From positions 4,070 through 68,069 of the forward strand of contig CAYLWO010000002.1 in assembly GCA_964387285.1 (NCBI GenBank): DNA of 64,000 nucleotides, in the 5' to 3' direction. Position 1 is the stretch's first letter. Each line of letters opens with the position of its first letter. A program made the position numbers and the translations under genes. The notes under the pieces are model-generated. The model searched no databases and was not told the DNA's origin. It worked only from the letters and a program-made list of their open reading frames with translations. The DNA is from an uncultured Cytophagia bacterium. Lineage in GTDB: Bacteria > Zhuqueibacterota > Zhuqueibacteria > Residuimicrobiales > Residuimicrobiaceae. Below, in pieces: positions 9,584 to 31,596 of this stretch.

Positions 9584-11749
9584 TCATTCATTCAGCACCA
9601 TGCTCAAGCCGATGCGATGCCGCTCCTTGTCAATGTTGATCACCCTGACCTCGATCACATCGCCAACCGACACCACCTCCAGCGGATTTTTCACATATTT
9701 CTTTGCCATGCGACTGAGATGCACCAGGCCATCCTCCTTGACGCCAATGTCCACAAACGCGCCAAAATCCACCACATTGCGCACCGTGCCTTTCAAGATC
9801 ATGCCCACGGCCAAATCATCTATGGAAAGCACATCGCTGCGTAAAATCGGTTTCGGCATTTCATCGCGCGGATCGCGATCCGGTTTTTCCAGGCAGGAGA
9901 TGATGTCCATCAGCGTTTCGCGACCGCAGCCGCATTTGTCGCTCAGCTGATCAATTGTTATTTTGCTTTTCTGCAGCTGTCGACTGATCAGCCGGCCATC
10001 GTCCTTAACGCCGGCCATATCCAATTCCAACTCGGTTAACAACCTCCTGGCAGCTTCATAGGATTCTGGGTGAACAGCCGTCGAATCTAGAAATTCCACT
10101 GCATCCGGTATGCGTAAAAATCCCGCCGACTGTACAAACGCATTCTCGCCCAGTCCTTTAATCTCGTGCAGCTGTTCACGCCTTTGAAACGCACCGTTCT
10201 CTTCGCGATACGTAACAATGTTCTCAGCCACGCGGCTGTTGATGCCGGATACGTATTTCAACAGGGAAGCGGAAGCGGTGTTGAGATTGACGCCTACCTG
10301 GTTCACGCAAGATTCTACGGCCTGATCCAGAGATTTCGCCAGGTTGACCTGATCCACATCGTGCTGATACAGGCCTACGCCGATGGATTTAGGATCGATC
10401 TTGACCAATTCGGATAACGGATCCAGCAACCGCCGGGCAATGGAGATGTTGCCGCGTTGTGAAGCTTCCAATTCCGGAAACTCTTTTTTCGCTATCGGCG
10501 AAGCAGAGTAGACCGATGCACCCGCCTCATTGACGATCGTATAACTGACATTTTTAAATTTTGTTATCACTTCTGCGACCAGTTTTTCAGTCTCTCGGCT
10601 GGCTGTGCCGTTGCCGATGGCGATGATTTCCAACCGATAATCCTGAATCAGCTCGAAAAGAATTTCAATGGCTTCCTGCCAGCGTTTTTGCGGTTCATGC
10701 GGAAAAATGGTATCGCCTTCCAGATATTTGCCGGTTTCATCAATAACCGCCACCTTGCAGCCGGTGCGAAAACCCGGATCAATGCCCATGATTTTTTTCC
10801 CGCGCATGGGGGGACCCATCAACAAGGCGCGCAGGTTGGCGCCAAATACCCGTATAGCATGTGCATCCGCCCGTTCGCGCATTTCGCTGCGAATTTCCCG
10901 TTCAATGGCCGGTGCAATCAGGCGATGATAAGCATCAGCGATGGCAACGCGCAACTCATCGGTAAAGATTGATCTGCTATTGGTGATATATTGTTGTTCT
11001 ATCGCCAGCACCATTTCCGATTCTGCGACATCGATCCAGACTTTGAGAAAATCTTCCCGCTCGCCGCGATTAACGGCGAGAATCCGATGCGGCGGGATCG
11101 TTTTCACCGGTTCGGAAAAAGCTTTGTACAACTCGTAATTGCCGGGATTTTCTTCGTCCTTCGCTTCAGATCGCAACACACCCTGGGCAAATGAGTTTTC
11201 ACGAATCATGCGGCGGATGTTGGCGTCGTCCGAAACGATTTCCGCTACAATGTCCCGGCCGCCGGCCAGAGCCTCTTTTGCCGATAAAACGCCCTTCTCC
11301 TCATTTATGTATAACGCGGCGATCTCCAGGGGGTCGCCCAGTTCCTGTTCCTGCTGCAAAATAATTTGTGCTAACGGTTCAAGTCCCTTTTCGCGGGCAA
11401 TCATAGCGCGCGTGCGCCGCTTGGGCTTGTATGGCAGATAGAGATCCTCCACCTCCTGCAACTTGATCGCAGCATTAATTTGCGCGGCCAGTTCCAGAGT
11501 CAGCTTGCCTTGTTCTTCAATGCTTTTGAGCACGGCTTGTTTGCGCTCTTCGAGGGTGCGCAGGTATTTGCTGCGTTCTTCAACAGCGCGGATCTGCTCC
11601 TCATCCAGACTGCCGGTGACCTCCTTCCGATAACGCGCGATAAACGGCACAGTATTGTCGCCATCCAACAACTCTATTGTATTTTTAACTTGATGCCATC
11701 GCAGGCCAAGTTCTTCTGCGATGAGTGTTATCATTTGTGACTCGTCCAA
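9584..11749 (-). CDS. tex: Transcription accessory protein Tex (YqgF/HhH/S1 domains)
   Basis: N-term MDESQMITLIAEELGLRWHQVKNTIELLDGDNTVPFIARYRKE is the Tex signature. A C-terminal S1 domain is present; 721 aa. Confidence 0.9.
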   Translation of the reverse strand: MDESQMITLIAEELGLRWHQVKNTIELLDGDNTVPFIARYRKEVTGSLDEEQIRAVEERSKYLRTLEERKQAVLKSIEEQGKLTLELAAQINAAIKLQEVEDLYLPYKPKRRTRAMIAREKGLEPLAQIILQQEQELGDPLEIAALYINEEKGVLSAKEALAGGRDIVAEIVSDDANIRRMIRENSFAQGVLRSEAKDEENPGNYELYKAFSEPVKTIPPHRILAVNRGEREDFLKVWIDVAESEMVLAIEQQYITNSRSIFTDELRVAIADAYHRLIAPAIEREIRSEMRERADAHAIRVFGANLRALLMGPPMRGKKIMGIDPGFRTGCKVAVIDETGKYLEGDTIFPHEPQKRWQEAIEILFELIQDYRLEIIAIGNGTASRETEKLVAEVITKFKNVSYTIVNEAGASVYSASPIAKKEFPELEASQRGNISIARRLLDPLSELVKIDPKSIGVGLYQHDVDQVNLAKSLDQAVESCVNQVGVNLNTASASLLKYVSGINSRVAENIVTYREENGAFQRREQLHEIKGLGENAFVQSAGFLRIPDAVEFLDSTAVHPESYEAARRLLTELELDMAGVKDDGRLISRQLQKSKITIDQLSDKCGCGRETLMDIISCLEKPDRDPRDEMPKPILRSDVLSIDDLAVGMILKGTVRNVVDFGAFVDIGVKEDGLVHLSRMAKKYVKNPLEVVSVGDVIEVRVINIDKERHRIGLSMVLNE

Positions 11750-11769
11750 TCCACTCCTCCTTTGTCAGC

Positions 11770-12534
11770 TCAACCCTTGAACTGTTTCATCTTTTCGTAC
11801 TGTTTTAATATTTCACCCATATAGGTCGGCACATCATCCGGCAAAATGCCGTTAGGGCGTCCTTCCTTGATCCATTGACTGGCCCGCCACTCGCCGACGC
11901 GACGTGCAGCCAAAGCGCCATCCACGCCATAAATATCGATAAGAGCTGCCAAATATCGCGTACCAATACGAATATTAAGGATGGGATTCAACAAAATCTC
12001 GTCCGGAGTCACCCAGTTCAAATTCATATTACGTGCAATGTAGGACCCGGTAATCGGCATTACCTGCATGAGACCCATGGCGCCTTCTCGCGAGATCATC
12101 TCCGGATTCCAGGTCCCGTTGGTTTCAAAGGTGATGATGGCGCAGACCAAATGTACGTCCAGGCTGGTGTATTGCAAGCTGGCGTCATATATTTCACGCG
12201 CCACGTCGTACTTTAACGGGCCGGGCATTGTTTGGTTATACTGCGAAATGAGGGCGCTAATCCGCGCAATATTAAACTGTCGCAAACTCTCGATATTCAT
12301 CGAGGCGCGTTGGCCTTTAATCACCTCTTCCAATTCGGTAATCTTTTTCAGATAGCGATTGTTATAGGTATATTTGATGCCGACTGCGACAATAATTAAC
12401 AACGCCAACGCCGACAACACCCAGATGGCATGGCGCAGATAATGCATGAATTTTTCTTCATTGAATAGCATTTTACGCTCCCATAAAAATTGAACTGCTG
12501 CCATAAAAATACAAAATTGCCGTGATTCTATCAA
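11770..12534 (-). CDS. Membrane-anchored lytic transglycosylase (SLT domain)
   Basis: N-terminal TM helix. SLT catalytic region EGAMGLMQVMPITGSYIA. Confidence 0.75.
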   Translation of the reverse strand: MIESRQFCIFMAAVQFLWERKMLFNEEKFMHYLRHAIWVLSALALLIIVAVGIKYTYNNRYLKKITELEEVIKGQRASMNIESLRQFNIARISALISQYNQTMPGPLKYDVAREIYDASLQYTSLDVHLVCAIITFETNGTWNPEMISREGAMGLMQVMPITGSYIARNMNLNWVTPDEILLNPILNIRIGTRYLAALIDIYGVDGALAARRVGEWRASQWIKEGRPNGILPDDVPTYMGEILKQYEKMKQFKG

Positions 12535-12607: not shown

Positions 12608-13708
12608 ATGGAAGCGTTAATGATCCTTGCATCTTTTATTGCTTTACTACTCTATGCCGGCATATTGCTCTGGCTGTACTTTGGCCTGGAGCGTCGTCAA
12701 CCACAGGCGCCTGTGCAGAAAGAAAAAATAACTGTTATCATTGCCGTGCGCAATCGCCGCGAAGAATTGCTGCGCTGTCTGCAAGCCTTGGCCAATCAGG
12801 AATATGACCGCCCTTACAACGTTATTATCGTAGACGATCATTCGACAGACGGTACGTTTGAAATCACAGAACAGTTTCTCCAACACCATTCAGACTGGCG
12901 AATCATTCATGCCGAGTCTTCATCCGCATGCGCCAGTTCGAAAAGAGCCGCTTTACATCAAGCTATTCTACAAGCAGAAGGCGAATGGCTAGTCTTTACG
13001 GATGCGGATTGTATTCCCCCAGTCACATGGTTGTCCGGCTTGAGCGGGTATTTTTCAGCAGAGACGGTTTTGGTGGCAGGATTTTCTCCGCAAGTCAGCG
13101 CCGGAAAAAGCGGGTGGAGCAACGTACTGCTTATCGATAGTCTATCCGCGGCACTGGTATCTGCAGCGACCATTGGCCGACAATACGGCGTTACCGGCGT
13201 TGGCCGCAACCTAGCCTATCGTCGCTCAGCTTGGAACAAAATTTCCGGATTTGACGCCTTGCCGGATACCTTGTCCGGGGATGATGATTTTATCATTCAG
13301 GAATTAAGTCGGCACGGTCGCGTACAGTATTGTCTGTCCCCGGAAGCGGTCGTCCCGGCACAAGGACCGTCTGACCTGCGTGAATTTTTGTGGCAAAAAC
13401 AGCGCCATCTTTCCAGCGGGCAATTTTATCCACTGCCGGCTAAAATTGCTTATAGCGCTTATCACAGTACAAACTTGCTGCTCTGGCCGCTCTTTTTCTT
13501 CGGTCTATGGAATCACTGGCTATTTTATCCTCTTTTGTGCAAATGGGTGCTCGACTTTTATGTTCTCCAGGACCTGGCAAAACGGTTGCAGCAGAAAATA
13601 CGCTGCCTGCCTTTTTTGATTTGGCAGGGAATTTTTGTATTTTATAACATCCGGGCAGGCTGGCAGCGATTTCGACCTCCGCCCACCTGGCAGGCAGATG
13701 GACCGTGA
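12608..13708 (+). CDS. Membrane GT2 glycosyltransferase, ceramide-glucosyltransferase/HpnI-like (GT21-like) paralog 1
   Basis: N-TM, VIIAVRNRREEL...VIIVDDHSTDGT (D1/D2), FTDADC, SGDDDF (D3), QKQRH (QxxRW-like) and C-terminal TM helices. Confidence 0.75.
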   Translation: MEALMILASFIALLLYAGILLWLYFGLERRQPQAPVQKEKITVIIAVRNRREELLRCLQALANQEYDRPYNVIIVDDHSTDGTFEITEQFLQHHSDWRIIHAESSSACASSKRAALHQAILQAEGEWLVFTDADCIPPVTWLSGLSGYFSAETVLVAGFSPQVSAGKSGWSNVLLIDSLSAALVSAATIGRQYGVTGVGRNLAYRRSAWNKISGFDALPDTLSGDDDFIIQELSRHGRVQYCLSPEAVVPAQGPSDLREFLWQKQRHLSSGQFYPLPAKIAYSAYHSTNLLLWPLFFFGLWNHWLFYPLLCKWVLDFYVLQDLAKRLQQKIRCLPFLIWQGIFVFYNIRAGWQRFRPPPTWQADGP

Positions 13709-14511
13709 GAAAAAAAATTAACGAAATACTGTGGTCCGAATATCAGGCTGCGATGCTGCATCGCGGCTGGTTAATTGCCGAAATTTTAGAAAAACGACTC
13801 GATTTAGCCGGCGCCCGAATAGCGGATTTGGGATGCGGCCATGGCGGCGCATCGCTGCAACTAGCCGAACGAGGGGCAGTTGTGGCCGCAGTCGATCGTC
13901 GAGCAGATACGGCAGCGCAACTCCAGGAGATGGCGCAAAAGAAAAAACTGACCGTTACCGTTCATGCTGCCGACATAGAAACCTGGCAGCCGCAAACTCC
14001 TGTGGATGCTGTTGTGCTGTGGGATGTACTGGAACATATTGCCCATCCCTTACTGCTGTTGCAGCATATCCGACGATTTCTCAAACCGAAAGGATTTTTA
14101 CTTTTGGCTACGCCGAATAAATGGTCACCGCTCAATCTGCTCTGCGATCCGCACTATAGTTTGCCCGGTATAGCTTGCTGCAAACGCACCCGTGTCTATA
14201 AAATCGTCGTGCAACGCTTGCATTGGTTTGCACCGGAGAAAACAGATATTGCACAATTAATTTCCTGGCGTGAATTACACGCCCTTTTACATGGCGCCGG
14301 TTTTAATTATGACTGGGTGGTTAAAGAGGTCTCAGAACTGGCTCTACAGAATCCGGCCAGCATATGGAACCGGCCTTGGCATTTACGATTGATTCACCTG
14401 ATAATGAACATGCGTCTGTCGCGCATCGTTCTCTCTGCGGCGCCGAAAAAACCGGGCTTGCTTAACCAAAGGCTTTTACCGACCTTTTATGTGCTGGCGA
14501 GTAAACGGTGA
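13705..14511 (+). CDS. Class I SAM-dependent methyltransferase
   Basis: Motif I DLGCGHGGASLQLA, post-I acidic VDRRAD, motif II VDAVVLWDVLEH. GTG start overlaps the upstream stop (GTGA). Confidence 0.75.
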   Translation: MRKKINEILWSEYQAAMLHRGWLIAEILEKRLDLAGARIADLGCGHGGASLQLAERGAVVAAVDRRADTAAQLQEMAQKKKLTVTVHAADIETWQPQTPVDAVVLWDVLEHIAHPLLLLQHIRRFLKPKGFLLLATPNKWSPLNLLCDPHYSLPGIACCKRTRVYKIVVQRLHWFAPEKTDIAQLISWRELHALLHGAGFNYDWVVKEVSELALQNPASIWNRPWHLRLIHLIMNMRLSRIVLSAAPKKPGLLNQRLLPTFYVLASKR

Positions 14512-15518
14512 AAGAACTTCCGATCAGAGCAATATTGAAAAGCATCACACGGTATCGCCTGAATAATGCGTTAAAACTGAGCGCCGGCTTTATTTTTTCA
14601 AAATTGCTGGGTTATCCATTTGTTTGGGGCCAGCCTTTTGTGGTGACGATAGAGCCAACCAATCTCTGCAATCTGGCCTGTCCACAGTGCGCGGTCGGCG
14701 CCGGAGTCTTGACGCGCCCTCGCGGCCAAATGCCGCTGGATCTCTATCGTGACATTTTAGAACAGATGCATCGTTCCCTCTGCTATTTACTGCTATACGA
14801 TCAGGGCGAACCGCTGTTGCATACGGACTATTGCGAAATGATTCGATTAGCAAAAGCCAAAAACATGGCCGTCACCTGCAGCAGCAACGGTCAATTGCTT
14901 GGCGATAAAGATATAGCCCGTTGCCTGGTCGCTTCCGGGCTGGACAACCTGATTATCTCCATCGACGGTTTGACGGAACAAACGTACCAAACCTATCGAA
15001 AAGGCGGGCAACTGTCTAAAGCAATCCAGGCAATCAAAAATGTTCAACAGGCTCGAAGCATTCTCAAAACAAAAACACCGCGAATTTGCGTTCAATTTCT
15101 GGTTACAAAACATAATGAAACCGAATTGCCGCACCTGGCTGAAGCGGTTCGCGACTGGGGGGCTGATCTACTGCTGATAAAAAGCATGCAGATTTGCACA
15201 CCGGCTGATGCTGAACAGTGGCTGCCGCGGCAGGAAAAATATCGCCGGTATCGAACCCGGAACAATCAACTGGTTACAAAAAAAAGAAACCGCATATGCC
15301 CCCGCTTGTGGTACAGCAGCGTCATACATCAGGACGGCAGCGTGGTGGCTTGTTGCTTTGACAAAGACAATCAATTCGTTCTCGGCCGCATGACCGAGAC
15401 GCCGTTTACACAACTCTGGCACGGTTCCGCTTTACAGGCATTGCGTACGGCTGTGCTGAATAAAACCAAACCAAATTTATGTAGAAATTGCACAAATGGA
15501 CTGGCGCTTTACAAATAA
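14508..15518 (+). CDS. Radical SAM protein, MoaA/HpnH-like with Cys-rich C-terminal (SPASM/twitch-like) domain, paralog 1
   Basis: EPTNLCNLACPQC (Cx3Cx2C) and GEPLLH. C-term CPRLW...VVACCFD...LCRNC. The GTGA overlap with the upstream gene indicates coupling. Confidence 0.7.
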   Translation: MKELPIRAILKSITRYRLNNALKLSAGFIFSKLLGYPFVWGQPFVVTIEPTNLCNLACPQCAVGAGVLTRPRGQMPLDLYRDILEQMHRSLCYLLLYDQGEPLLHTDYCEMIRLAKAKNMAVTCSSNGQLLGDKDIARCLVASGLDNLIISIDGLTEQTYQTYRKGGQLSKAIQAIKNVQQARSILKTKTPRICVQFLVTKHNETELPHLAEAVRDWGADLLLIKSMQICTPADAEQWLPRQEKYRRYRTRNNQLVTKKRNRICPRLWYSSVIHQDGSVVACCFDKDNQFVLGRMTETPFTQLWHGSALQALRTAVLNKTKPNLCRNCTNGLALYK

Positions 15519-16470
15519 AAAAACCGTCATCTTTTGGATCAAAGGCGTGATTGCCGTTTGCGTTCTCGCACTTTTGGTGCGGCGCATCAGTTGGCGCGCT
15601 CTGCTGGAGGCTGTATATCAGGCGCAGGCAGAATGGATTATCGCAGCGGCCCTTTTATTGATTCCCAATATTTTTTGTCAGTTTAAACGCTGGCAACTCA
15701 TCACCCGACAGCTCCATCCGGATACGTCGAATCCGGTGGTGGCGCGTTCTCTTTTTGCCGGCATCACTCTCGGTTTTATCACGCCCGGCCGCATCGGCGA
15801 TCTGGGGCGAACGATTTTTATTCCACAGGCCAATTGGCTTGGATTGGTCGGTTTGATGTTGGTGGAAAAATGGTATAGCCTGCTGATCATTTACTGGTTC
15901 GGCTTATTAGGCATCATTCCCATCCTGTCGACCGCGTTTAAACTGGAACTGTGGATCCCGGCCGTGCTGACCGGACTGATTATGATTTTGGCCGGCATCA
16001 GCCTGGTGTTGCATCCGGGATTTTTAAATTATATTCTCAAACGCTTCGACAAAGCGAGAAAAAGAAAACGACTGCATCAGGTCTTTGCCGGCATCAATGC
16101 CTTGACGCCAAAATTGTCCCTCCAGCTTTTGCTTTATACCCTGATACAGGTCCTCGTTTATTTCGGACAATTCTACCTTCTCGTGAGAGCATTTACCCCC
16201 TTGCCGCTCTTGCGGGGCTTGGCAGCCGTCGCGGCGATCATGTGGAGTAAAACCCTGCTGCCCATTTCTCTAGGCGATCTGGGCGTGCGTGAAAGCGCAG
16301 CCGTTTATTTCCTCGGCAAATTGCATACGCCCGCAGCCGTTGCGTTTGACAGCGCCTTACTCTTGTTCGCCATCAATATTTTACTGCCGGCCATTATCGG
16401 CTTTGTGGTATTGCTGCAGAGTCGAATCTTGCAAAATGGGCCCGGTAAAACCATGAGGTCACGGTGCTGA
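15496..16470 (+). CDS. Flippase-like integral membrane protein (lysylphosphatidylglycerol-synthase TM-region / UPF0104 family)
   Basis: About 8 predicted TM helices. Conserved FITPGRIGDLGRT motif. 23-nt overlap with the upstream gene. Confidence 0.6.
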   Translation: MDWRFTNKKTVIFWIKGVIAVCVLALLVRRISWRALLEAVYQAQAEWIIAAALLLIPNIFCQFKRWQLITRQLHPDTSNPVVARSLFAGITLGFITPGRIGDLGRTIFIPQANWLGLVGLMLVEKWYSLLIIYWFGLLGIIPILSTAFKLELWIPAVLTGLIMILAGISLVLHPGFLNYILKRFDKARKRKRLHQVFAGINALTPKLSLQLLLYTLIQVLVYFGQFYLLVRAFTPLPLLRGLAAVAAIMWSKTLLPISLGDLGVRESAAVYFLGKLHTPAAVAFDSALLLFAINILLPAIIGFVVLLQSRILQNGPGKTMRSRC

Positions 16471-17579
16471 TATATTATCTCGTTATTTCTCTAGTATACA
16501 TTTTATTTATCGCCTGGATATACAAGGGGATTCAGCAGTTAAATGAACAAAAGGTAAATTTTCAACAACCGATTGTCAATGTCATCGTTCCAGCGCGCAA
16601 TGAAGCCGCAAATCTTGCCGAATGTCTAACGCATTTAAAGCAACAGAGTTATCCGGCACATCGTTACGAAATCATCGTCGTCGATGACGGCTCTGTTGAT
16701 GAAACAGGCAGGATAGCAAAAGAGCAGGGCGTTCGCTGCCTGACTCTGGATGTTATTCCCAAGGGCTGGTCGCCCAAAAAGGCCGCCCTGGCCCTGGCGA
16801 TCCGCAACAGCAATGCAGAAATTATTCTAACCACCGATGCGGATTGCCGTGCGCCGCGGGAATGGATCGAATCCATGATCCGTCATTTCACGGCCGATGT
16901 CGGCGTTGTGGCTTCGTGGGTTGGGATTGCCGAAACAGGCTCCTTGCTGGCGCGTTTAGAAGCTCTGGATACGCTTTCGTATCAAATGATTGGCGCTGCG
17001 GCCATCGGACACGGAAAACCTTTTTTGGCTAACGGCGCCAATTGGGGGTACAGACGCGAGCTTTATGCTGAGGTCAACGGCTTTAGCGGCATCGAATCAT
17101 TGGCCTCCGGCGACGATGATCTGTTACTGCAAAAAATGGCGCAAAACGGCAAATGGCGCGCAGCCTTCAGCAACGAATCAAGCACGCGCCTTATCACCAA
17201 AAGCTGCACGTCCTGGTCCGGCTTTTTCATGCAGCGCCTGCGCTGGGCTTCCAAGAGCCATCGTTATCCGCTATCCGTTATTCTTTTGGAAGGATTTATT
17301 TTTATTTACCATTCTTCCCTGTGGTTGGTATTGGTCTTAAAAATTAACTCGCCGCTCTGGTTTTTATTTCTTCTGGTTAAACTGGTCAGCGATGCTCTAT
17401 TGGTTCGCACGGTGATGCAAAACATCAATTTTAAATTTCACTGCTTCGATATGCTGCTGGCCCAGATCGGACAGATGATTTACACGGTTATCCTCGGCTT
17501 GCTGGCGTGGCGCGGCCGCTTTGTCTGGAAAAATCGTGTTTATAATCGCGGTACGCTGGTTGAAGAAAAAAGGGTTTGA
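16464..17579 (+). CDS. Membrane GT2 glycosyltransferase, GT21-like paralog 2
   Basis: VNVIVPARNEAANL, IIVVDDGSVDET, TTDADC, SGDDDLL, QRLRWASK and C-terminal TMs. GTG start overlaps the upstream stop. Confidence 0.75.
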   Translation: MLIYYLVISLVYILFIAWIYKGIQQLNEQKVNFQQPIVNVIVPARNEAANLAECLTHLKQQSYPAHRYEIIVVDDGSVDETGRIAKEQGVRCLTLDVIPKGWSPKKAALALAIRNSNAEIILTTDADCRAPREWIESMIRHFTADVGVVASWVGIAETGSLLARLEALDTLSYQMIGAAAIGHGKPFLANGANWGYRRELYAEVNGFSGIESLASGDDDLLLQKMAQNGKWRAAFSNESSTRLITKSCTSWSGFFMQRLRWASKSHRYPLSVILLEGFIFIYHSSLWLVLVLKINSPLWFLFLLVKLVSDALLVRTVMQNINFKFHCFDMLLAQIGQMIYTVILGLLAWRGRFVWKNRVYNRGTLVEEKRV

Positions 17580-17638
17580 AAAAAAGCTCTTGTTTGATAT
17601 ATTTAGCTGAATGGCACGATAGGCGCCCGCAAAACAAC

Positions 17639-17666
17639 CTTGCGAAGGTTTAGAGCCTTCGCCAAG
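17639..17666. terminator. REP-like palindromic hairpin (family C/D copy 1), possible internal terminator/attenuator
   Basis: cttgcgaaggtttagagccttcgccaag is a near-perfect inverted repeat, about 60 nt after the GT2 paralog 2 stop. It is near-identical to 51447-51474. No strong T-run follows. Confidence 0.4.
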
Positions 17667-17725
17667 ATAATACAATCGTTCAGTTCTGGTAAATAATATT
17701 TTGACACCCGTTTTGGGATTATCGA

Positions 17726-19288
17726 ATGAAACACATTCTTGCCATAACCATCATTTCATATTCGCTGCTCTTTTCGGCCCCCCCCAGTTCCGTGAATGTG
17801 CCGAATGACTATTGGGGATATGGTTTTCTGGAACGTATGGAAACCAAGGGACTGTTGAAAAGTTACCAGCTTTGTACCCGCCCTGTTTCGCGTACGATCT
17901 TTGCCGAACTGTTGCGGCAGACGACAGAACAATTGCAGCGCAATGCCGCAATTCTGAGCAAAACGGATCAGCAATTGCTCGAGCAGCTCCAGGGCGATTT
18001 TTACGATGAACTGCATCCTGTCTCATCCGAGCGCGGTCCCGAACGCCATTTTACCAGTTGGAAAGAAGGGCAAAGCCGTTTGCATATCGATCTGTATGGC
18101 AAACAGTCCATCATCTCCAATCGTGGCCAGCAATATGAAACCAGCGAGTTGATCTCTGAAACCTCTCTCGGCGCCATCCTGCGCGGCTCGCTCAGCAACA
18201 CCATCGGATTTTATCTGGATGCGCGCAATGCACTCACCCGCGGCAAGGATGAAATATTGGAAGAAAATTTCGATCCGTCTCAGGGCTCGCCGGTGGTGAT
18301 TTCCGGTTCAAACGTTTTTCAGGATCGCGCGCTCGCTTACTGGACCTGGCAGAATGCCTGGCTGCGCCTGCAAATGGGCCGTGACGAATTGCAATGGGGA
18401 CCGGGATATCATGCCGGTCTTTCCATCTCCGGCAACATGCCGGCAACAGAAATGATCCGCCTCAGCGCCTCCTTTCGTCGTTTTAAATTCAGCTACATTC
18501 ACGCCTTTCTGCGCAGCAGTCTCGGCCCTAAATATCTGGCCGGTCATCGCCTGGATTACATGGTCAAACCCGGCCTCTATTTCGGCGCATCGGAAACGGT
18601 TATTTATGGCCAACGCGACGTCGAGTTCGCCTATCTCAATCCCATCATGCCGATTCATGTCGCGCAACACCATCTGGGCGACAAGGACAACAAGACCATG
18701 AGTTTGGATGCGACCTGCACGCTGGTCCGCAACTGCAAACTGTATCTGGAATATTTCATCGACGACATGACCAGCAGTGAGAGTTTGACCAAATTCTACG
18801 GCAACAAATTCGCCTTTCTGACCGGAATTCTTTGGACCGATCCGTTGCATATCGCCAATACCGATCTTCGCTGCGAATACTCGCACGTCGAGCCGTACGT
18901 CTATACACACTGGGATTCCATCAACATCTACACCAACTATGACCAGATCATCGGCCACTGGTTGGGGCCTAATGCAGACTGTCTCTTCATACAGGCCGGC
19001 TGGCAACCTTTGCGCGATTTTCGCGTCGAGTTTTTTTGGGAACAGCAGCGCAACGGCGCCGGCAACGCGGACACGCGCACCAGACCTGAACAAGGCATGA
19101 CCAAGCAATTTTTGGGCGGCGTGGTGGAAAAGAAAAAAATGATCGGTTTAAAACTGGTCGAACAGATACGTCGCGATATGTTTGCCTCAGTCAGTTATAC
19201 CTACTGTGATACCCGCAACCTGCATCGCCAGGCTGGTAAAACCTCCTTTGATCATCTGGCCCGCTTTGAATTCTGGTTAAATTATTGA
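17726..19288 (+). CDS. Outer-membrane beta-barrel protein, possibly Wzi-like capsule/glycan anchoring family
   Basis: Signal peptide MKHILAITIISYSLLFSA. N-terminal helical region PNDYWGYGFLERMETKGLL. Aromatic-rich amphipathic strands. C-terminal ...FEFWLNY. Confidence 0.45.
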   Translation: MKHILAITIISYSLLFSAPPSSVNVPNDYWGYGFLERMETKGLLKSYQLCTRPVSRTIFAELLRQTTEQLQRNAAILSKTDQQLLEQLQGDFYDELHPVSSERGPERHFTSWKEGQSRLHIDLYGKQSIISNRGQQYETSELISETSLGAILRGSLSNTIGFYLDARNALTRGKDEILEENFDPSQGSPVVISGSNVFQDRALAYWTWQNAWLRLQMGRDELQWGPGYHAGLSISGNMPATEMIRLSASFRRFKFSYIHAFLRSSLGPKYLAGHRLDYMVKPGLYFGASETVIYGQRDVEFAYLNPIMPIHVAQHHLGDKDNKTMSLDATCTLVRNCKLYLEYFIDDMTSSESLTKFYGNKFAFLTGILWTDPLHIANTDLRCEYSHVEPYVYTHWDSINIYTNYDQIIGHWLGPNADCLFIQAGWQPLRDFRVEFFWEQQRNGAGNADTRTRPEQGMTKQFLGGVVEKKKMIGLKLVEQIRRDMFASVSYTYCDTRNLHRQAGKTSFDHLARFEFWLNY

Positions 19289-19295
19289 TCCGGCC

Positions 19296-20411
19296 TTGAT
19301 AATAATTTTCTACATAACCTGCGGAATGACGGCCATTTACGGCTTGTGCCTCATACTGTTCTCCCTGGGATTGCTGCGCAGGCAGAACAAAAGTGTATTA
19401 CAACCCTTTGTTTCTGTAATTGTAGCTTGTCGCAATGAACAGGAAAATATTACACCCCTGTTGCATGCCTTGACCCGGCAAAATTACCCATCTACGCGCT
19501 TTGAAATTGTCCTGGCCAATGACGCCTCTACAGACGAAACAGGGCAACGGATCAGCGCTTTTTTTAAGACCAATCCCAGTGTTGCTATTAAAAAAATCTC
19601 CGTGCAGAACCGCGATCAGGCGGCTTCGCCCAAAAAAAATGCGCTGAGTCAGGCGATTGCATTTTCTACAGGAGAGGTGCTGCTTTTTACAGATGCCGAT
19701 TGTCGGCCAGGCCCGGACTGGATCGCAAGTATCGTCCAATATTTCTCGCCAGATGTTGGCATGGTTATCGGTTTCTCGCCGTATGAATTGCCTTCGCTGC
19801 AGGGCATTGGGCAACGATTGCTGGCCATAGAGTCCCTATCCCTCGCAGCTCTGGCTGCCGGCACAACCGGATGGGGACGGCCGGCCACCTGTACCGGTCG
19901 CAATCTCGCCTATCGCAGAAAAGTTTATGATGAATTGGGCGGATTCAAGGAAATTGCGCAATTTGTATCCGGCGACGACGATTTGTTTTTAAAACTGGTC
20001 GTGCAACGCACGCGCTATCGGGTAAGATACGCGTTGGACAGCCGCGCGGTTGTGCCGACTCTAATTTTGACAAATGGCCGGCATTTTTTTCAACAACGTT
20101 TGCGCCACGCTTCCAAAGGTTTTCACTATGGCTGGCGCATGACCTCTGTGCTGGCCGGCGCCTGGTTGTACAATTTTTTGTTGTTGGGATTGCTGTTAAC
20201 TCCGTGGCGCGGATATGCCATTATGCTTTTCCTGGTAAAAGCCTTTTCAGAATTACCGCTCCTGCTGGGTTTTGCAGCAAAAATGAACAGAGTATCCTAT
20301 TTTACCGTTTGGCCGTTGGCTGCTTTTTTGCATATTTGTTACGTCGTGGTCATTGGCGCATTGGGACCGTTCCTGAAATTCAATTGGAAAGAGATCAGGG
20401 TTCATTCATGA
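19296..20411 (+). CDS. Membrane GT2 glycosyltransferase, GT21-like paralog 3
   Basis: VSVIVACRNEQENI, FTDADC, SGDDDLF, QQRLRH and C-terminal TMs. Confidence 0.75.
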   Translation: MIIIFYITCGMTAIYGLCLILFSLGLLRRQNKSVLQPFVSVIVACRNEQENITPLLHALTRQNYPSTRFEIVLANDASTDETGQRISAFFKTNPSVAIKKISVQNRDQAASPKKNALSQAIAFSTGEVLLFTDADCRPGPDWIASIVQYFSPDVGMVIGFSPYELPSLQGIGQRLLAIESLSLAALAAGTTGWGRPATCTGRNLAYRRKVYDELGGFKEIAQFVSGDDDLFLKLVVQRTRYRVRYALDSRAVVPTLILTNGRHFFQQRLRHASKGFHYGWRMTSVLAGAWLYNFLLLGLLLTPWRGYAIMLFLVKAFSELPLLLGFAAKMNRVSYFTVWPLAAFLHICYVVVIGALGPFLKFNWKEIRVHS

Positions 20412-21556
20412 TTGGCTTGTCCTACATCGTCCTGGCGTTGACGATTGTTTACGGAATAATCCTTCTGGTCTTTATTGTTGCGCTACGCTTTCCGAGTAAG
20501 GCAAACAGCCCTTTGCAGCCGCGTGTTTCCATCATTGTTGCTGCGCGCAACGAAGAAGCCAACATTGCCGCGCTGCTGGAGGATTTGGTGCAGCAGGATT
20601 ATCCGGCTGAATATGAAATCATTATCGCCAACGACGGTTCAACCGATGGCACGGCTCATCTGGTCAACGGGTTTTGCACCCGCTTTGCCAATATCCATCT
20701 ACTCAATATCGATGAGGCGCCGGCAGGATTCAGTCCGAAAAAATATGCCTTACAATGCGCAGTGGAAAAATCAACCGGCGAGATCATTCTGGCCACGGAC
20801 GCAGATTGTCGCGTGGGACCGGGCTGGATTTCCGGCATGGTTGCTTATTTTGCGCCCGAGGTGGGTTTTGTTATCGGTTTTTCGCAATATGGCAGACCGG
20901 GGCAAAAACAAAAACTGGTGGAACGGTTTCAAGCGTTCGATTTTGTCACGCTCATGGCTGTGGCAGCGGCCAGTACGCATCTGCGCATTCCCATGGCAGC
21001 CTCGGGACAAAATCTGGGCTATCGTCGCGCCGCGTTCATTCAGGTGGACGGCTATCGTTCCATCAGCCATCGCATGTCCGGCGACGATGTCCTACTCATG
21101 CAATTGATTCGCCGTCGCACGGATTATCGTATTTTATACGCTTCGGACCCGCGCACGTATGCTGTGTCAGCGCCGCAACCCACCTGGCCCGCTTTTATCA
21201 ATCAACGCAACCGCTGGGCCTCTAATGGCGGCTATCAATTGCTGTTGAGCCCCTTGTTCTTTAGCTATCTGGTTTTCACCTTTTCCTATAATTTGGCGCT
21301 GCTGCTTGGCCTCTCACTTTACGGCGCCGGTGTTCTTGGCGGATGGGGCATGCCGCTCTGCTTTCTGGCCAAAGGATTTTTTGAATTTTGTGTGGCTTGT
21401 AGCGGTTGCAGATATTTTCAGCGATCTGATCTGCTGAAATATTTTCCTCTGTGGTTTCTACTGCAGATTCCCTATATTGTTCTGGTCGGCGCCATGGGTT
21501 CTTTGGGATTATTTCGCTGGAAGGGCCGCAAAGGCGCGACAAGGATCCGGGCATAG
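20408..21556 (+). CDS. Membrane GT2 glycosyltransferase, GT21-like paralog 4
   Basis: Start ATG overlaps the paralog 3 stop (ATGA). VSIIVAARNEEANI, ATDADC, SGDDVLL, NQRNRWAS. The longer ORF from 20204 was rejected because it overlaps the paralog 3 coding region. Confidence 0.7.
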   Translation: MIGLSYIVLALTIVYGIILLVFIVALRFPSKANSPLQPRVSIIVAARNEEANIAALLEDLVQQDYPAEYEIIIANDGSTDGTAHLVNGFCTRFANIHLLNIDEAPAGFSPKKYALQCAVEKSTGEIILATDADCRVGPGWISGMVAYFAPEVGFVIGFSQYGRPGQKQKLVERFQAFDFVTLMAVAAASTHLRIPMAASGQNLGYRRAAFIQVDGYRSISHRMSGDDVLLMQLIRRRTDYRILYASDPRTYAVSAPQPTWPAFINQRNRWASNGGYQLLLSPLFFSYLVFTFSYNLALLLGLSLYGAGVLGGWGMPLCFLAKGFFEFCVACSGCRYFQRSDLLKYFPLWFLLQIPYIVLVGAMGSLGLFRWKGRKGATRIRA

Positions 21557-22076
21557 CCAAAGGCTGTTTATTTTTTTTCGTTATAATAATAAATGACGTT
21601 CAATGATGCTGTAAGAAATTTATGATCTATTCCCCCATAGTCGCCCAGATGTTTGATGCGACCGGCGAAGTTCTTTTGCACCTGCATCTCGATGCCAATC
21701 TTGTTAAATCTATATCCTGCCGCTAAAATAAAACCGGTAAAGCAAGATAAGCTTCAGCCCAATCCGCATTTACAATCTGTGACCAGTTGCTATAATATGC
21801 CGTTCTATTTTCCACTCTGGCTCCGCGTAGTAGAATTTCCATCCCATAGACCAGCGAAAGGTATTTTTTTGCAAACTCTCGACGCCTATGCCCATGGAAT
21901 ACCTTAATAGTGGTTTGGAAGAGGTGTCGTAAAATTTGGAGCAATTAACGCTGCCGGAAATAAAAAGGGCGAGCCGGCTCGGGTTTCAGAAAAACGAAGC
22001 AACATCAGGAATAGAAACAAAATGCTTTCTAAAACCGTCTGAAAACCGTAAATTCTGCACTGATTTGAGGAAGAGC

Positions 22077-23132
22077 ATGAGCGCACCGATACAGCTGCTA
22101 AACAATCTGTTACATCGCCGGCCGGTCAACTCGAGCACGGAAATCCGTCTGACCCGCCTGTGCACGCAACGCTGCCGGCAGTGTCGCGTTTACGAACGGG
22201 AAACCCAGCCGGCCAGCATGAGTCTGGAACAATTTCAAATGATCCGGCGGCGGTTGCGTGAATACGGTGCCTGGCTCGGCTTTATCTCCGGCGGCGAAGC
22301 GTTGCTGGCGCCGGATCTGTTGCCCATCCTGGCAGAGGCGAAAAAGACCTTTCGCTGCGCCACCACCCTGGTCACAGGGCTTTACCATCAACGTCAACGG
22401 GTATTGGAAGCGGCCGAGTTTTGCCTGGCAAACAATATCAACATCCAGACCTCCATGGACGGCATCGGCCCTGTGGGTAATTACTTGCGCGGCGTCAAGA
22501 ATTTTAGCGATACCGTGCTGGAGCATATGGCCTTAATCAGCGCCATGAAAAAAAATTCTCAATCGCTGCTCTACGCAAACATTGTGCTCAACAACCTGAA
22601 TCGCAACCAGGTTCCGGATCTGATCCGGCGCTGCCGCGGCCTGGGTTGGCGCGTCACCATCGGCCTGTATCACAACCTTACCGAGACCACACGCAGAGAC
22701 GACGAGTTGCGTATTACACCGGATGAACAACTTGATCAACTGCTGGCTTTTCTGGATCACAATCCGGATATTTTGAATTTAAATTCATTCATTCGCGGCA
22801 TCGGCCCGTTTTTACGCAGCGGGAAAACGACACGTTGTCCCTTTGTCGCCGGCCGCATCTGGATGACGCGCACCACCATCATGGAAAACGGCGACCTGCA
22901 TCTGTGTTGGGGCGGCCCCATCGGCAATCTTTTCTCCTCTTCCCTGCGGGAAATATTCCACAGCTCCGTTTATACCGACCGCCTGGCTGCTTACGACCGC
23001 TGTGCCGGCTGTTGGACCACCTGCTACACGCAACGGCTGTTGCTCTTGCGTCCTCGCTCCCTGACCGAATTACGAGACAACATCGTCAAGATGATCCACC
23101 TGCGTCGTTATCAACAGGAGCGGCCGGCGTGA
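22077..23132 (+). CDS. Radical SAM protein with Cys-rich C-terminal domain, paralog 2
   Basis: RLCTQRCRQC (Cx3Cx2C), ISGGEALL. C-term CPFVAG...LHLCWGG...CAGCWTTC. Start chosen at the ATG preceded by GAGGAAGAG. The ORF-track start at 21936 lacks an RBS. Confidence 0.65.
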   Translation: MSAPIQLLNNLLHRRPVNSSTEIRLTRLCTQRCRQCRVYERETQPASMSLEQFQMIRRRLREYGAWLGFISGGEALLAPDLLPILAEAKKTFRCATTLVTGLYHQRQRVLEAAEFCLANNINIQTSMDGIGPVGNYLRGVKNFSDTVLEHMALISAMKKNSQSLLYANIVLNNLNRNQVPDLIRRCRGLGWRVTIGLYHNLTETTRRDDELRITPDEQLDQLLAFLDHNPDILNLNSFIRGIGPFLRSGKTTRCPFVAGRIWMTRTTIMENGDLHLCWGGPIGNLFSSSLREIFHSSVYTDRLAAYDRCAGCWTTCYTQRLLLLRPRSLTELRDNIVKMIHLRRYQQERPA

Positions 23133-23899
23133 AAAAATTTTTATTTCTTTTACTGATCGCCGGCGTAGCCGGCAGTGGTGAAAAAGTGCGATTCATCGGC
23201 CATGCTGATTTAAATCGATTTATTGGCGAACAACTGGATTTCTCCTTGTCCTTGCGCGGGGTCAGCGCAGCCAAGGCGCGCATGCTTTGCGACACCCTCG
23301 GTATCGACCGCTGGCTTATCTCAGCCGACATATCGACAAAATTCTGGGCTGATCTGGTTTTCCCAGTGCACAATATTTACCAGACCTTTCTCGATCGCCG
23401 CGACGGCCGCACTGCAGAGACCTATAAAAAAATCAAACAAAAAAATCTTGGCCAGGAGATGCATGTCGTTTTTGATTATAAACAAAAGCAGGCGACCGGT
23501 TATTCGGATGGCAGCCGCACCATTCGCGATTCCCTGCAAACCCTCTTTGCCATGCTCTATCACTTGCGCGCCATGGATTTGTCTTTACATGATTCTGTCT
23601 TCTGTTTATTGGAAATTGAATCACAGTGGTGGCAAGTAGCCGGGAAAGTCAGACAGGGAGAAAAAACCACCGGACCTTTTTCTCGTCTCGAGGTCCGCGA
23701 TGTGGTGCTTACTTTTTCCCCTCACGGCGCGGTTGTTGCCCGTCCCTGGAAAACCGATTTGCTGACCAATCGCATTGCCCGCAGCGGCCGGTTGCTCATC
23801 CGGCTGGGGCCTGCGCCGGAGAATTTGCCAATATGGATACAGATCGGCGAGGCCAAACAGACCGTGACGCTCAAATTGAACAGCTGTAAAAAGGTGTAA
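23129..23899 (+). CDS. Secreted hypothetical protein (possibly DUF3108-like)
   Basis: GTG start overlapping the upstream stop (GTGA). Signal peptide VKKFLFLLLIAGVAGSG. About 256 aa, no catalytic motif recognised. Confidence 0.4.
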   Translation: MKKFLFLLLIAGVAGSGEKVRFIGHADLNRFIGEQLDFSLSLRGVSAAKARMLCDTLGIDRWLISADISTKFWADLVFPVHNIYQTFLDRRDGRTAETYKKIKQKNLGQEMHVVFDYKQKQATGYSDGSRTIRDSLQTLFAMLYHLRAMDLSLHDSVFCLLEIESQWWQVAGKVRQGEKTTGPFSRLEVRDVVLTFSPHGAVVARPWKTDLLTNRIARSGRLLIRLGPAPENLPIWIQIGEAKQTVTLKLNSCKKV

Positions 23900-23902
23900 T
23901 GC

Positions 23903-25030
23903 ATGGTCACGCTCATCCATATATTTTGCGCCATCCTCTATCTTTTAGTAGGCATCGCTATCCTGTTGCTGCTGAAAAAAAGCTGGCCACAAAAAAAGTC
24001 TGTGGAACCGGTTCTGGCCTCTGTCATCATTGCCGGACGCAATGAAGCGCCGCATTGGCCGGCCTGTTTGGACGCTTTGGCAAATTTGGATTATCCGACG
24101 GACAAATTGGAAATCATCCTGGTTGACGATGCCTCCCGCGATCACTCCTTGTCGCTTTTGCGTGCGTTTGCGCAACAGCGTCCGTTTGTACGCGTCATCT
24201 CCCTTTCTGTGGAAGCGAAAGAATTGGCCGGCAAGGCCGGCGCGGTTTTGCCGGCCATCGAATCCAGCAAGGGCGAAATTATCTTTGTCACGGATGCCGA
24301 TTGTCAAGTTCCGCAAAACTGGATTTTAAGTCACCTTTCCTTCTTTACTGATGAGGTGGGATTGGTCGGCGGCCTGACTTTGCTGGATCAACCGCGTCAC
24401 AAGTATGGCGCTTTTCAGCGTATCCAATCCCTGGATTGGTTGTTCCTGCTGTCGGTCGCCTTTGCGGCCGGCCGTATCGGCAGACCCCTGAGTTGGATGG
24501 GCAACAACATGGCCTTTCGTCGCACAGCGTATCACGCGGTGGGCGGCTATCGTTCGCTGGCCAGCCATTTAATCGAAGATTTCAGTCTGATGGACGCGAT
24601 GGTCCGGCAGACTCCGTGGCGGGTTGTTTTACACACCCAGGCCTCGGCCATGGTGCTAAGCTGCGCTGAAAAAACCGTGACCGGGCTTTATCGACAGCGT
24701 CGGCGTTGGGCCCTGGGCGTACGACCGGTGCGCCTGTTGGGTAAAGGCTTGTTGTCGGTTTTTTATATCAGCCACATGCTGGTTTGGTTGGCGTTGGTTT
24801 GCAGCCAGACAACAGGATGGCTGCTATTTATCGTCATCCTCGCAACAGATGCAGCCATTCTGATCACAGCTGCCGGACCGATCAACCGGCATGATCTGTT
24901 GAAATGGCTGCCTAGCTTGCAATTGTATTATTTCCTGGCAATCTTGTTGCTGCCGCCGATTCTTTTATTCGATAAAAAAATCATCTGGAAGGACAAGGTC
25001 TACCATTCAATGGATCAAAGTGTCCGCTGA
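23903..25030 (+). CDS. Membrane GT2 glycosyltransferase, GT21-like paralog 5 (divergent D3 motif EDF)
   Basis: ASVIIAGRNEAPHW, IILVDDASRDH, VTDADC, LIEDFSLMDAM (resembles the AEDYF region of ceramide glucosyltransferase), RQRRRWALG, C-terminal TMs. Confidence 0.75.
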   Translation: MVTLIHIFCAILYLLVGIAILLLLKKSWPQKKSVEPVLASVIIAGRNEAPHWPACLDALANLDYPTDKLEIILVDDASRDHSLSLLRAFAQQRPFVRVISLSVEAKELAGKAGAVLPAIESSKGEIIFVTDADCQVPQNWILSHLSFFTDEVGLVGGLTLLDQPRHKYGAFQRIQSLDWLFLLSVAFAAGRIGRPLSWMGNNMAFRRTAYHAVGGYRSLASHLIEDFSLMDAMVRQTPWRVVLHTQASAMVLSCAEKTVTGLYRQRRRWALGVRPVRLLGKGLLSVFYISHMLVWLALVCSQTTGWLLFIVILATDAAILITAAGPINRHDLLKWLPSLQLYYFLAILLLPPILLFDKKIIWKDKVYHSMDQSVR

Positions 25031-25073
25031 TAACAACCTGGTTGTCTAGTGCGTATTTAAGCCGGAATCGATC

Positions 25074-26075
25074 ATGTCGCTTTTGCCGCCGCTTTTGCTG
25101 CATTATTATATTACTTATCGTTGCAATTGTCGCTGTCGTTTTTGCGAAATCTGGCAAATGAATGATCCCGCAGAAGCTGATCCGGCAGTTGTCCGGCTGC
25201 GCCTACGGCAGGCCAAACAGCTCGGCGTCCGCTTTGTGGATTTCACCGGCGGTGAACCGTTACTGCATCCTGATCTGCCGGATATGTTGAAAGCGGCCCA
25301 AGAGCTGGGCCTTAAAACCACCATCACCACCAACGCAGCGCTTTATCCACAACGGGCCGGCGAGTTGGCAGGTTTGGTGGATTTTTTGCATTTCTCCCTG
25401 GATGCTGCTGAGGCTGATATGCATAATCGCTTGCGCGGCGCTATCATTTTTGACACCGTTGTAGAGAGCCTGGATATTGCTCGAGCTCTGGGCGAACGAC
25501 CTGATATCACCTTTACCGCTAATGAAGAGAACCTCTCGCAACTTGCCTTGTTATCGCAAGTTGCAGAAGCGCTTGCGCTGGTGCTTGTGGTCAATCCGGT
25601 ATTTGGTCAAGAGGCACTTTCAGAGCAAGCTCTGAACTATATCGAGCAGTATAAACAACATCCTTACGTCTATATCAATCCAGCCTTTCACCGTTTGCGC
25701 AGAAGGGGCGGCAATCAAACAGATCATCCCCGTTGTCGCGTCATGGATGCGGTGATCGTCATTCTGCCGGATGATCAACTGGCTGTTCCCTGTTTTCATT
25801 TCAATCAGACGCGACGCCCCATTTCCCATTTAAAGGTCATGCAAGACGAAAAGTGGTTTAAAGATATCAAAAGGCAACAGGGAAAATTTCCGACTTGTCA
25901 GGGGTGTGTGCTGAACTGTTATTTTGATCCATCTTTTCTTTATGTTCCGGATTTACTGTTTTATGAAAGCATGCAAGCGAAATTACGCTACGCCTGGCTC
26001 AAATATCTGAAACCGGATCAGAAACCAACGCAATCGGCGGGCAAACTGTTTTCTCAACTGGTCAACAAACCATGA
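25074..26075 (+). CDS. Radical SAM protein with Cys-rich C-terminal domain, paralog 3
   Basis: YRCNCRCRFC (Cx3Cx2C), FTGGEPLLHPDL. C-term CRVMDAV...VPCFHF...CQGCVLNC. Confidence 0.7.
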   Translation: MSLLPPLLLHYYITYRCNCRCRFCEIWQMNDPAEADPAVVRLRLRQAKQLGVRFVDFTGGEPLLHPDLPDMLKAAQELGLKTTITTNAALYPQRAGELAGLVDFLHFSLDAAEADMHNRLRGAIIFDTVVESLDIARALGERPDITFTANEENLSQLALLSQVAEALALVLVVNPVFGQEALSEQALNYIEQYKQHPYVYINPAFHRLRRRGGNQTDHPRCRVMDAVIVILPDDQLAVPCFHFNQTRRPISHLKVMQDEKWFKDIKRQQGKFPTCQGCVLNCYFDPSFLYVPDLLFYESMQAKLRYAWLKYLKPDQKPTQSAGKLFSQLVNKP

Positions 26076-28133: not shown

Positions 28134-28167
28134 ACAAAACGACCTCTCTCATAGGGGTAAATTCATC

Positions 28168-28213
28168 ATCTTTTCTGTCAGGGGCGCGCTAAACGCGCCT
28201 CTGCAGAAAAGAT
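28168..28213. other. Long nested palindromic hairpin between jag-like and mpl
   Basis: atcttttctgtcaggggcgcgctaaacgcgcctctgcagaaaagat has outer arms atcttttctg(t)cag/ctgcagaaaagat and inner arms ggcgcg/cgcgcc. Confidence 0.4.
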
Positions 28214-28219
28214 GTTTTG

Positions 28220-31576: not shown

Positions 31577-31596
31577 GCTTGTACTTTATTTTACTC

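Follow-up and report, generated by a model that had tools for sequence, protein, structure and literature searches.

We report that five paralogous glycosyltransferase (GT) genes on one strand of an uncultured bacterial genome are old, separately conserved members of one operon-like cluster, and that they divide into two classes by the residues at their predicted acceptor sites. The genes lie in a 64,000-nucleotide window (the whole stretch of DNA analyzed) of contig CAYLWO010000002.1, assigned to an uncultured Cytophagia bacterium, where 13 closely packed genes occupy the + strand from 12608 to 27661 according to open reading frames (ORFs) and Pfam and NCBIfam profile searches. The five GT genes, all intact ORFs on this strand, span 12.4 kb (12608-25030) and are called GT1 to GT5 in gene order; to avoid confusion with paralog GT2, the enzyme family is written CAZy GT2 or family GT2. 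With slightly better than even confidence, we favor the explanation that the five GTs are active and non-redundant, that their acceptor pockets differ, and that together they assemble a single envelope glycoconjugate on an acceptor anchored in the membrane; tailoring, flipping, and handling at the outer membrane would follow.

The motif strings quoted in a preliminary description of this DNA were all found in the translations, aligned in register, although two of its labels have to be corrected. The strings that it called D1 represent the first beta-strand with the RNE nucleotide-binding motif, not the first Asp, which is located in (D/N)D-x-S; this motif and the DxD motif, TDADC, are present in all five paralogs. 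Nor is the EDF of GT5 an odd variant of the third Asp, since ED (T-E-D) is what cellulose synthases and ceramide glucosyltransferase canonically have, while the G-D-D of GT1 to GT4 is the alternative form; more distant GT5 homologs read S-V-T-E-D-Y, i.e., the classical TED motif. The base position reads SGDD(D/V) or IED, and both it and the constant TDADC are kept across orthogroups. The full set of D1, D2, D3, and (Q/R)XXRW is present in the GT2, GT4, and GT5 paralogs, whereas His replaces the Trp in GT1 (QKQRH) and GT3 (QQRLRH), as had been noted. In enzymes of this kind, the Asp of TED is the general base and the Trp of QxxRW stacks on the acceptor sugar (PMC9651860); Asp223 is the equivalent general base in PcManGT, a crenarchaeal membrane mannosyltransferase (PMC12595478). 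The earlier label "GT21-like" is defensible at the level of domains, because all five proteins pass PF13506 (Glyco_transf_21; 36-58 bits, cutoff 21.7), but assignment to family GT2 is stronger, with PF00535 outscoring PF13506 in every paralog (73-89 bits, cutoff 23.3). By every criterion testable on translations and models, the five proteins are predicted to be CAZy GT2-family members.

As the preliminary description had maintained, the paralogs are not the result of recent tandem duplication. Pairwise global identity among them is 26.4-39.7%, well under the value of more than 80% that it had taken as the mark of a recent event. When the five GTs of 10 genomes were compared, mean identity was 48-62% within orthogroups versus 25-34% between them, and each of the five orthogroups received 100/100 bootstrap support in a neighbor-joining tree; the duplications are therefore older than the divergence of these lineages. 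The deeper branching is weak (GT1 with GT3, 63/100; GT4 with GT5, 74/100), and the His may have arisen once or twice.

Gene order tells the same age. A scan of species-representative genomes with GT3 as the query revealed the identical 13-gene order in a KSB1 metagenome-assembled genome (MAG; locus L001), where each GT has its positional counterpart in the window as best match, at 39-52% identity versus 25-37% to the other paralogs. GT3-homolog look-ups and a metagenome scan yielded the full order in L019, L021, L022, L024, L026, L030, and L042 and near-complete versions in L017, L027, and L058. The claim of non-redundancy made earlier is borne out to the extent that the order of the five paralogs is preserved in at least nine loci besides the window and that each paralog has its own fixed active-site signature. 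By a wide margin, most relatives that carry a name are labeled "candidate division KSB1"; some are Calditrichota. The flanks are conserved as well in at least nine loci, with an SLT gene on one side and genes for an R3H protein, Mur ligase, RodZ, Maf, D-Tyr deacylase (Dtd), and UbiA on the other (window 9584-12534 and 27648-32439), showing that the cluster occupies a fixed position within a cell-wall/morphogenesis neighborhood. Apart from the window, only L021, its closest relative, was seen to have a Tex gene upstream of the cluster.

The replacement of Trp by His is a signature rather than a lesion. Among 120 database homologs of GT3 (41-100% identity) and the query, His occupies the Trp position in 121 of 121, and TDADC and SGDDD are invariant in the same 121 sequences, so that by sequence criteria these forms, whose possible inactivity the preliminary description had raised, do not look like decayed pseudoenzymes. 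QxxRH is likewise found in 17/17 GT1 orthologs, with the DxD and general-base motifs kept. When GT1 was searched exhaustively with phmmer in a set of 1.84 billion representatives, 485 clusters (50% identity) were returned at E ≤ 1e-30, and 125 of the best 149 representatives have His at the Trp position. These three sets mark the His form as the signature of a large subfamily. The remaining orthogroups retain their own forms: QRxRW in paralog GT2, with Phe for Trp in 5 of 25 sequences; QRxRW in GT4, with SGDD[VI]L in 43/52; and [IV]EDF with QR[RK]RW in all 15 GT5 orthologs, the ED/QRRRW pair being kept in GT5 homologs down to approximately 31% identity (Ignavibacteria, Bacteroidota, and Rhodothermales).

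A second position varies together with the His. Between the DxD and GDD/ED motifs lies G-x-N-[LM]-[AG]-[YF]-R-[RK], which we take to be the positional counterpart of the BcsA acceptor-site motif FFCGS. Arg fills position x in every His-type sequence (81/81) and in no Trp-type sequence (0/86); the latter have Gln in GT4, Ala in paralog GT2, and Asn in GT5. The alignment of GT3 with BcsA ends at GT3 residue 271, the His itself, opposite BcsA chain residue 383. Given this covariation and the stacking of the Trp on the acceptor, the Arg/His pair would most simply represent a remodeled, more basic acceptor pocket and hence a different acceptor. A separate observation concerns GT1 residues 45-51 (window 12740-12760), which contain RNR where nearly all relatives have RNE; the closest representative, P0183 (64% identity), reads RNN at the same position, and this looks like a lineage-specific relaxation of the first-strand nucleotide-binding motif.

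AlphaFold2 models of GT3 and GT5 (pLDDT of 94.4 and 93.0, respectively) have one topology, in which an N-terminal transmembrane (TM) helix is followed by a GT-A domain, an amphipathic interface helix bearing QxxR(H/W), and three C-terminal TM helices; in GT3, the first TM helix comprises residues 2-26, and the interface helix (residues 261-278) carries QRLRH including the His. Foldseek searches with both models placed PcManGT first (E of 1e-15 to 3e-16, TM-score of approximately 0.6), then hyaluronan synthases (HAS) and BcsA. All top structural matches are family-GT2 GT-A enzymes, and the polyprenyl-phosphate GTs GtrB, ArnC, and DPMS gave TM-scores of 0.38-0.41 versus 0.60-0.67 for PcManGT, HAS, and BcsA. 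The models thus depict a four-TM, "minimal cellulose-synthase-like" architecture. BcsA and HAS have six to eight TM helices; with only four, a polymer channel is unlikely to arise from one subunit, and the modeled count fits lipid or other membrane-anchored acceptors, short products, or oligomeric channels. Just past the last TM helix, all five paralogs contain an F..WK motif (window ~13690, 17540, 20390, 21530, and 24990). Its Trp does not vary among the five (A1 W361), and its Trp-Lys is invariant in the GT3 family (A2 W364-K365) and the GT5 family (A3 W362-K363); the motif could be the counterpart of the BcsA/HAS gating loop.

His-type and Trp-type genes tend to be paired. In the window, the order is His-type then Trp-type twice (GT1...GT2 and GT3-GT4), with GT5 terminal. 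GT3 and GT4, described earlier as adjacent and coupled, are indeed joined by a 4-nt ATGA overlap (tcATGAtt), and among 39 non-identical metagenome loci that cover enough sequence, 29 have GT4 as the next gene after the His-type GT3. A Wzi-like gene lies directly upstream of the His-type GT3 in 22 of 37 metagenome loci. Three modules recur: a His-type GT, methyltransferase, (radical SAM A), flippase-like protein, and Trp-type GT; (Wzi), GT3 (His), GT4 (Trp), and (radical SAM B); and DUF3108, GT5, radical SAM C, and metallohydrolase. In reduced clusters with three GTs, the first Trp-type GT is followed by a NodB/PdaB-like polysaccharide deacetylase and radical SAM B by a PilZ-domain protein, the PilZ domains of L044 and L043 scoring approximately 24 bits against a Pfam cutoff of 22.5. 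These additions hint at N-acetylglucosamine chemistry and cyclic di-GMP control in the organisms concerned.

According to the explanation we favor, the five genes would encode anciently diverged, individually indispensable, catalytically competent, membrane-embedded inverting GTs of the GT-A type, with two classes of acceptor pocket: Arg plus His in GT1 and GT3, and Ala, Gln, or Asn plus Trp in the GT2, GT4, and GT5 paralogs. Each enzyme would most likely catalyze its own, distinct sugar-transfer reaction on the cytoplasmic side, with an acceptor anchored in the membrane. In the order of action that we infer, the methyltransferase and radical SAM enzymes would next modify the product, the LPG_synthase_TM-like protein would take part in its passage through the inner membrane, and the Wzi-like and DUF3108 proteins would accept it at the outer membrane. 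These last three supply an export context within the cluster, the Wzi-like and DUF3108 proteins having signal-peptide-like N termini. The successive sugar additions to a growing lipid-linked headgroup envisaged in the preliminary description may be one concrete form of this explanation.

Several observations weigh against it. Donor and acceptor cannot be read from sequence, and GT activity itself is a prediction. The His/Arg covariation amounts to only one or two independent evolutionary events; bootstrap support for the grouping of GT1 with GT3 is just 63/100. Some lineages can do without radical SAM A and B, both being absent from L017, L027, L031, and L058. A His-type GT3 occurs with no adjacent Trp-type partner in L020, L049, and L073, and pairing is accordingly common but not obligatory. 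The PilZ and NodB-like deacetylase genes of the reduced clusters, together with the HAS-like fold, point to a polysaccharide rather than a small lipid headgroup. Finally, the related loci were retrieved with GT3-derived patterns, which introduces an ascertainment bias.

The polysaccharide alternative is a real if doubtful possibility. Heteromeric His/Trp pairs (4 + 4 TM helices) would polymerize and translocate an alternating heteropolysaccharide, the Arg/His pocket taking an anionic sugar such as a uronic acid while a neutral sugar goes to the Trp pocket. In this scheme, the Wzi-like protein would serve in the outer membrane as lectin or anchor, and the contribution of GT5 would be a second polymer or a primer. 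The position of a Wzi capsule-assembly homolog directly upstream of GT3, the His-to-Trp adjacency with translational coupling, the fold, and the QxxRW and TED motifs, hallmarks of processive beta-glycosyltransferases, are all consistent with such a synthase; the PilZ-domain proteins of L044 and L043 and the deacetylases speak for it in the reduced clusters, but the window has no PilZ, TPR/porin scaffold, or deacetylase gene. Four predicted TM helices per protein are what the non-processive PcManGT has, the PgaC, NodC, and CelA equivalog cutoffs are nowhere near, and GT3 sometimes stands alone.

It is unlikely, in our judgment, that the His-type enzymes are instead polyprenyl-phosphate or lipid-phosphate GTs. 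On this reading, the acceptor phosphate would be bound by their Arg and His, which stand at two acceptor-site positions in place of neutral and aromatic residues; the resulting lipid-phosphate-sugar would be flipped by the LPG_synthase_TM-like protein for periplasmic use, and the Trp-type enzymes would act on sugar acceptors. A flippase-like gene does sit in the same module, a UbiA prenyltransferase gene belongs to the conserved neighborhood, and in L020 the order Wzi, GT3, PAP2 lipid phosphatase stands beside a complete mevalonate pathway, an adjacency that is perhaps coincidental. GtrB, ArnC, and DPMS are nevertheless the poorer structural matches, and a GT-C enzyme to make use of this kind of donor is missing from the cluster.

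Less plausible still is the idea that the His-for-Trp paralogs are dead pseudoenzymes serving as scaffolds or regulators of their Trp-type partners. The acceptor-stacking Trp is lost, a Trp-type partner is usually adjacent, and the GT1 of the window also has RNR for RNE, yet TDADC and SGDDD are unchanged in GT3 homologs down to 41% identity and kept in GT1 orthologs, His-type genes are found apart from Trp-type neighbors, and an invariant His with its coupled Arg suggests a remodeled rather than a relaxed active site. That the five are recent, redundant tandem duplicates can be dismissed: although they share strand, domain architecture, and a 12.4-kb region, their identity is 26-40%, the orthogroups are older than the split among at least 10 genomes, and the "five tandem GT21-like paralogs" of the preliminary description form no head-to-tail array but are interleaved with eight other, conserved genes.

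Coordinates of the cluster, its flanks, and the additional genes of reduced clusters are collected below. Overlaps of 4-23 nt occur at most gene junctions. For GT4, radical SAM B, and DUF3108, start positions were taken from genes called on two Logan contigs with 100% identity to the window.

Table 1. Positions of cluster genes and associated features (window coordinates unless a locus is named)
Feature	Position	Strand	Remarks
SLT lytic transglycosylase	11770-12534	-	Divergent conserved upstream neighbor
GT1	12608-13708	+	His-type membrane GT2-family; QKQRH, SGDDDF, G-R-N, RNR in first strand; PF00535 83 bits, PF13506 36 bits
Methyltransferase, class I SAM-dependent	13705-14511	+	PF13489 80 bits; 4-nt overlap with GT1
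Radical SAM A (radical SAM/SPASM)	14508-15518	+	PF04055 and PF13186
LPG_synthase_TM protein, MprF-flippase/HpnL-like, polytopic membrane	15496-16470	+	PF03706 80.8 bits, full profile; multiple hydrophobic segments
Paralog GT2	16464-17579	+	Trp-type membrane GT2-family; QRLRW, SGDDDL, G-A-N
Wzi-like outer-membrane protein	17726-19288	+	PF14052 70 bits; signal-peptide-like N terminus
GT3	19296-20411	+	His-type membrane GT2-family; QQRLRH, SGDDDL, G-R-N; alternative start 19326 (source genome's gene call)
GT4	20408-21556	+	Trp-type membrane GT2-family; QRNRW, SGDDVL, G-Q-N; mechanical ORF from 20204 too long
Non-coding gap, 520 nt	21557-22076		Sole long gap in cluster
Radical SAM B (radical SAM/SPASM)	22077-23132	+	Linked to GT4 in most related loci
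DUF3108 protein	23129-23899	+	PF11306 30.8 bits; signal-peptide-like N terminus
GT5	23903-25030	+	Trp-type membrane GT2-family; TED-like IEDF, QRRRW, G-N-N
Radical SAM C	25074-26075	+	PF04055 77.5 bits; co-occurs with GT5
CehA/McbA-family (PHP-like) metallohydrolase-domain protein	26072-27661	+	NF038032 73.9 bits, just under cutoff 80; last cluster gene; syntenic in related loci
R3H protein and Mur ligase	27648-29635	-	Conserved downstream neighbors; then RodZ, Maf, Dtd, UbiA
Extra genes (deacetylase/PilZ) of reduced clusters	L044 9246-9893, 13565-14245; L043 8261-8962; L093 4024-4638; L018 6552-7187		

The five GTs, the three radical SAM proteins, and the Wzi-like, DUF3108, and flippase-like proteins reached no NCBIfam equivalog threshold, and the methyltransferase gave only weak partial matches to UbiG and MftM, again with no equivalog reached. 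Upstream of the cluster, on the - strand, are genes for a glycosyltransferase of CAZy family GT4 (GT-B fold; 4661-5803) and a large beta-helix protein (6149-8644).

The gap between GT4 and radical SAM B opens with a terminator-like hairpin and T-run (21553-21567) directly after the GT4 stop and contains a strong promoter-like site at 21769-21796 (TTTACA-16-TGnTATAAT, 11/12 matches). In the related KSB1 loci L001 and L019, GT4 and radical SAM B overlap instead and the gap is absent; therefore, a split of the operon into two transcripts may be confined to the lineage of the window. No Rfam family was matched at gathering thresholds anywhere in the window, this gap included, and its only ORFs are short and non-conserved. 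A RiPP (ribosomally synthesized and post-translationally modified peptide) or glycocin cluster was rejected on the same grounds, as this is the only sizeable gap and relatives lack it.

Two loci in other genomes were also recorded. In L020 (2337-12032; Calditrichota MAG RPQV01000027.1), Wzi, the His-type GT3, and a PAP2 phosphatase are immediately upstream of a complete mevalonate pathway comprising HMG-CoA reductase, type-2 IDI, HMG-CoA synthase, two GHMP kinases, and MVD; this adjacency may tie the GT to an isoprenoid lipid or may be coincidence. L010 (7753-10855; Synechococcaceae MAG) has three consecutive, distant GT2-family relatives with 24-31% identity to the GTs of the window, and some GT5 homologs bear the JGI label "1,2-diacylglycerol 3-beta-glucosyltransferase"; a link to lipid-glycosylating GT2-family enzymes is possible.

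The Trp of QxxRW is usually taken as a defining acceptor-binding residue of cellulose-synthase-like GT2-family enzymes. A QxxRH subfamily in which His and a co-varying Arg are fixed while the catalytic residues are all kept offers a natural experiment on acceptor specificity in this fold. A literature search found no paper with "QXXRH" or "QRXRH," and the literature searched appears to contain no description of the QxxRH/G-R-N subfamily, of its pairing with QxxRW enzymes, or of the 13-gene KSB1 operon. With three radical SAM enzymes and a methyltransferase, the operon probably marks a major, chemically unusual envelope glycoconjugate of uncultivated KSB1 bacteria and relatives, and it would be a target for heterologous reconstitution and for reading lipid or glycan biomarkers from sediments and sludge, the habitat of these bacteria. 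The fold and chemistry are familiar and overturn no current understanding. On a more speculative view, which we hold only tentatively, QxxRH/G-R-N enzymes would be a distinct, widespread, as yet uncharacterized class of membrane GT2-family enzymes with a basic pocket for an anionic acceptor (lipid phosphate or a uronic-acid-terminated glycan), working in obligate tandem with QxxRW enzymes; in KSB1, two His/Trp pairs would join with one TED-type enzyme, the three radical SAM enzymes, and the Wzi-like barrel in making a new, lineage-defining outer-envelope glycolipid or alternating heteropolymer.

Among known systems, PcManGT (PDB 6YV7) is the best PDB sequence match (E of 4e-16 for GT5 and 4e-14 for GT3). 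It resembles the paralogs in its length of approximately 350 aa, its GT-A domain with few TM helices, and its general-base Asp at the equivalent place, but identity is 19-23% and the sequence alignment is restricted to the N-terminal two-thirds; PcManGT is, moreover, an archaeal single-gene N-glycan enzyme that gives no sign of a His/Arg versus Trp split or a multi-paralog operon. The processive synthases (HAS, BcsA, chitin synthase, NodC, and PgaC) differ in having six to eight TM helices versus four in the GT3 and GT5 models. The GTs of the window are without a fused PilZ domain, and the Trp is missing in two paralogs while present in GT2, GT4, and GT5. The best paralog scores against NCBIfam equivalog models, 84 for PgaC (cutoff 422), 42 for NodC (550), and 32 for CelA (699), do not approach the cutoffs.

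The resemblance of the EDF motif to the AEDYF of eukaryotic ceramide glucosyltransferase (UGCG, PDB 26qf), proposed earlier, was recovered by phmmer: residues 40-297 of GT5 align (29 bits, E of 6.6e-6), with liEDFslm opposite iaEDYFmak and rrRWa opposite miRWt, so that ED falls on ED and RW on RW. GT5 is the paralog most like this enzyme and HpnI; for GT3, the match is weaker still (E of 6e-4). An N-terminal TM anchor and a cytoplasmic GT-A domain are shared, but the similarity is weak and falls short of a close full-length match, and no sphingolipid genes were seen in the window; on sequence, the five GTs are only distant GT21 relatives. The mycofactocin enzyme MftF (TIGR03965) is matched best by GT1, with 85 bits versus a cutoff of 280, the context includes no mftA-E genes, and the conserved intergenic spaces leave no room for a precursor peptide gene. 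CruG was also rejected, its equivalog threshold in NCBIfam being above the scores of all five GTs. Our literature search found nothing on KSB1 with glycosyltransferase and radical SAM or on LPG_synthase_TM-linked GT2-family glycolipids, nor any paper on a solved structure of ceramide glucosyltransferase.

The closest parallels in gene content are the nodulation and hopanoid systems. The reduced clusters resemble NodC/NodB/NodS in combining a four-TM GT2-family enzyme, a NodB-like deacetylase, and a SAM-dependent methyltransferase, but the NodC scores are at most 42 bits versus 550, the deacetylase scores 130 bits against the NodB model versus a cutoff of 240, NodA acyltransferase is absent, and the cluster of the window has no deacetylase. 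In hpnI-J-K-L, as in the window, membrane GT2-family, radical SAM, and LPG_synthase_TM families stand side by side, with a deacetylase added in the reduced clusters. The best HpnI score (TIGR03472) is 80.9 bits for GT5 versus a cutoff of 310, HpnK is a deacetylase of the YdjC type whereas that of the reduced clusters is of the NodB type, and the window has no squalene-hopene cyclase. With scores and gene content this far from membership, hpnIJKL and nodBCS are to be read as analogies of logic and not as assignments, hpnIJKL being the precedent for a lipid-linked sugar that is tailored and then flipped.

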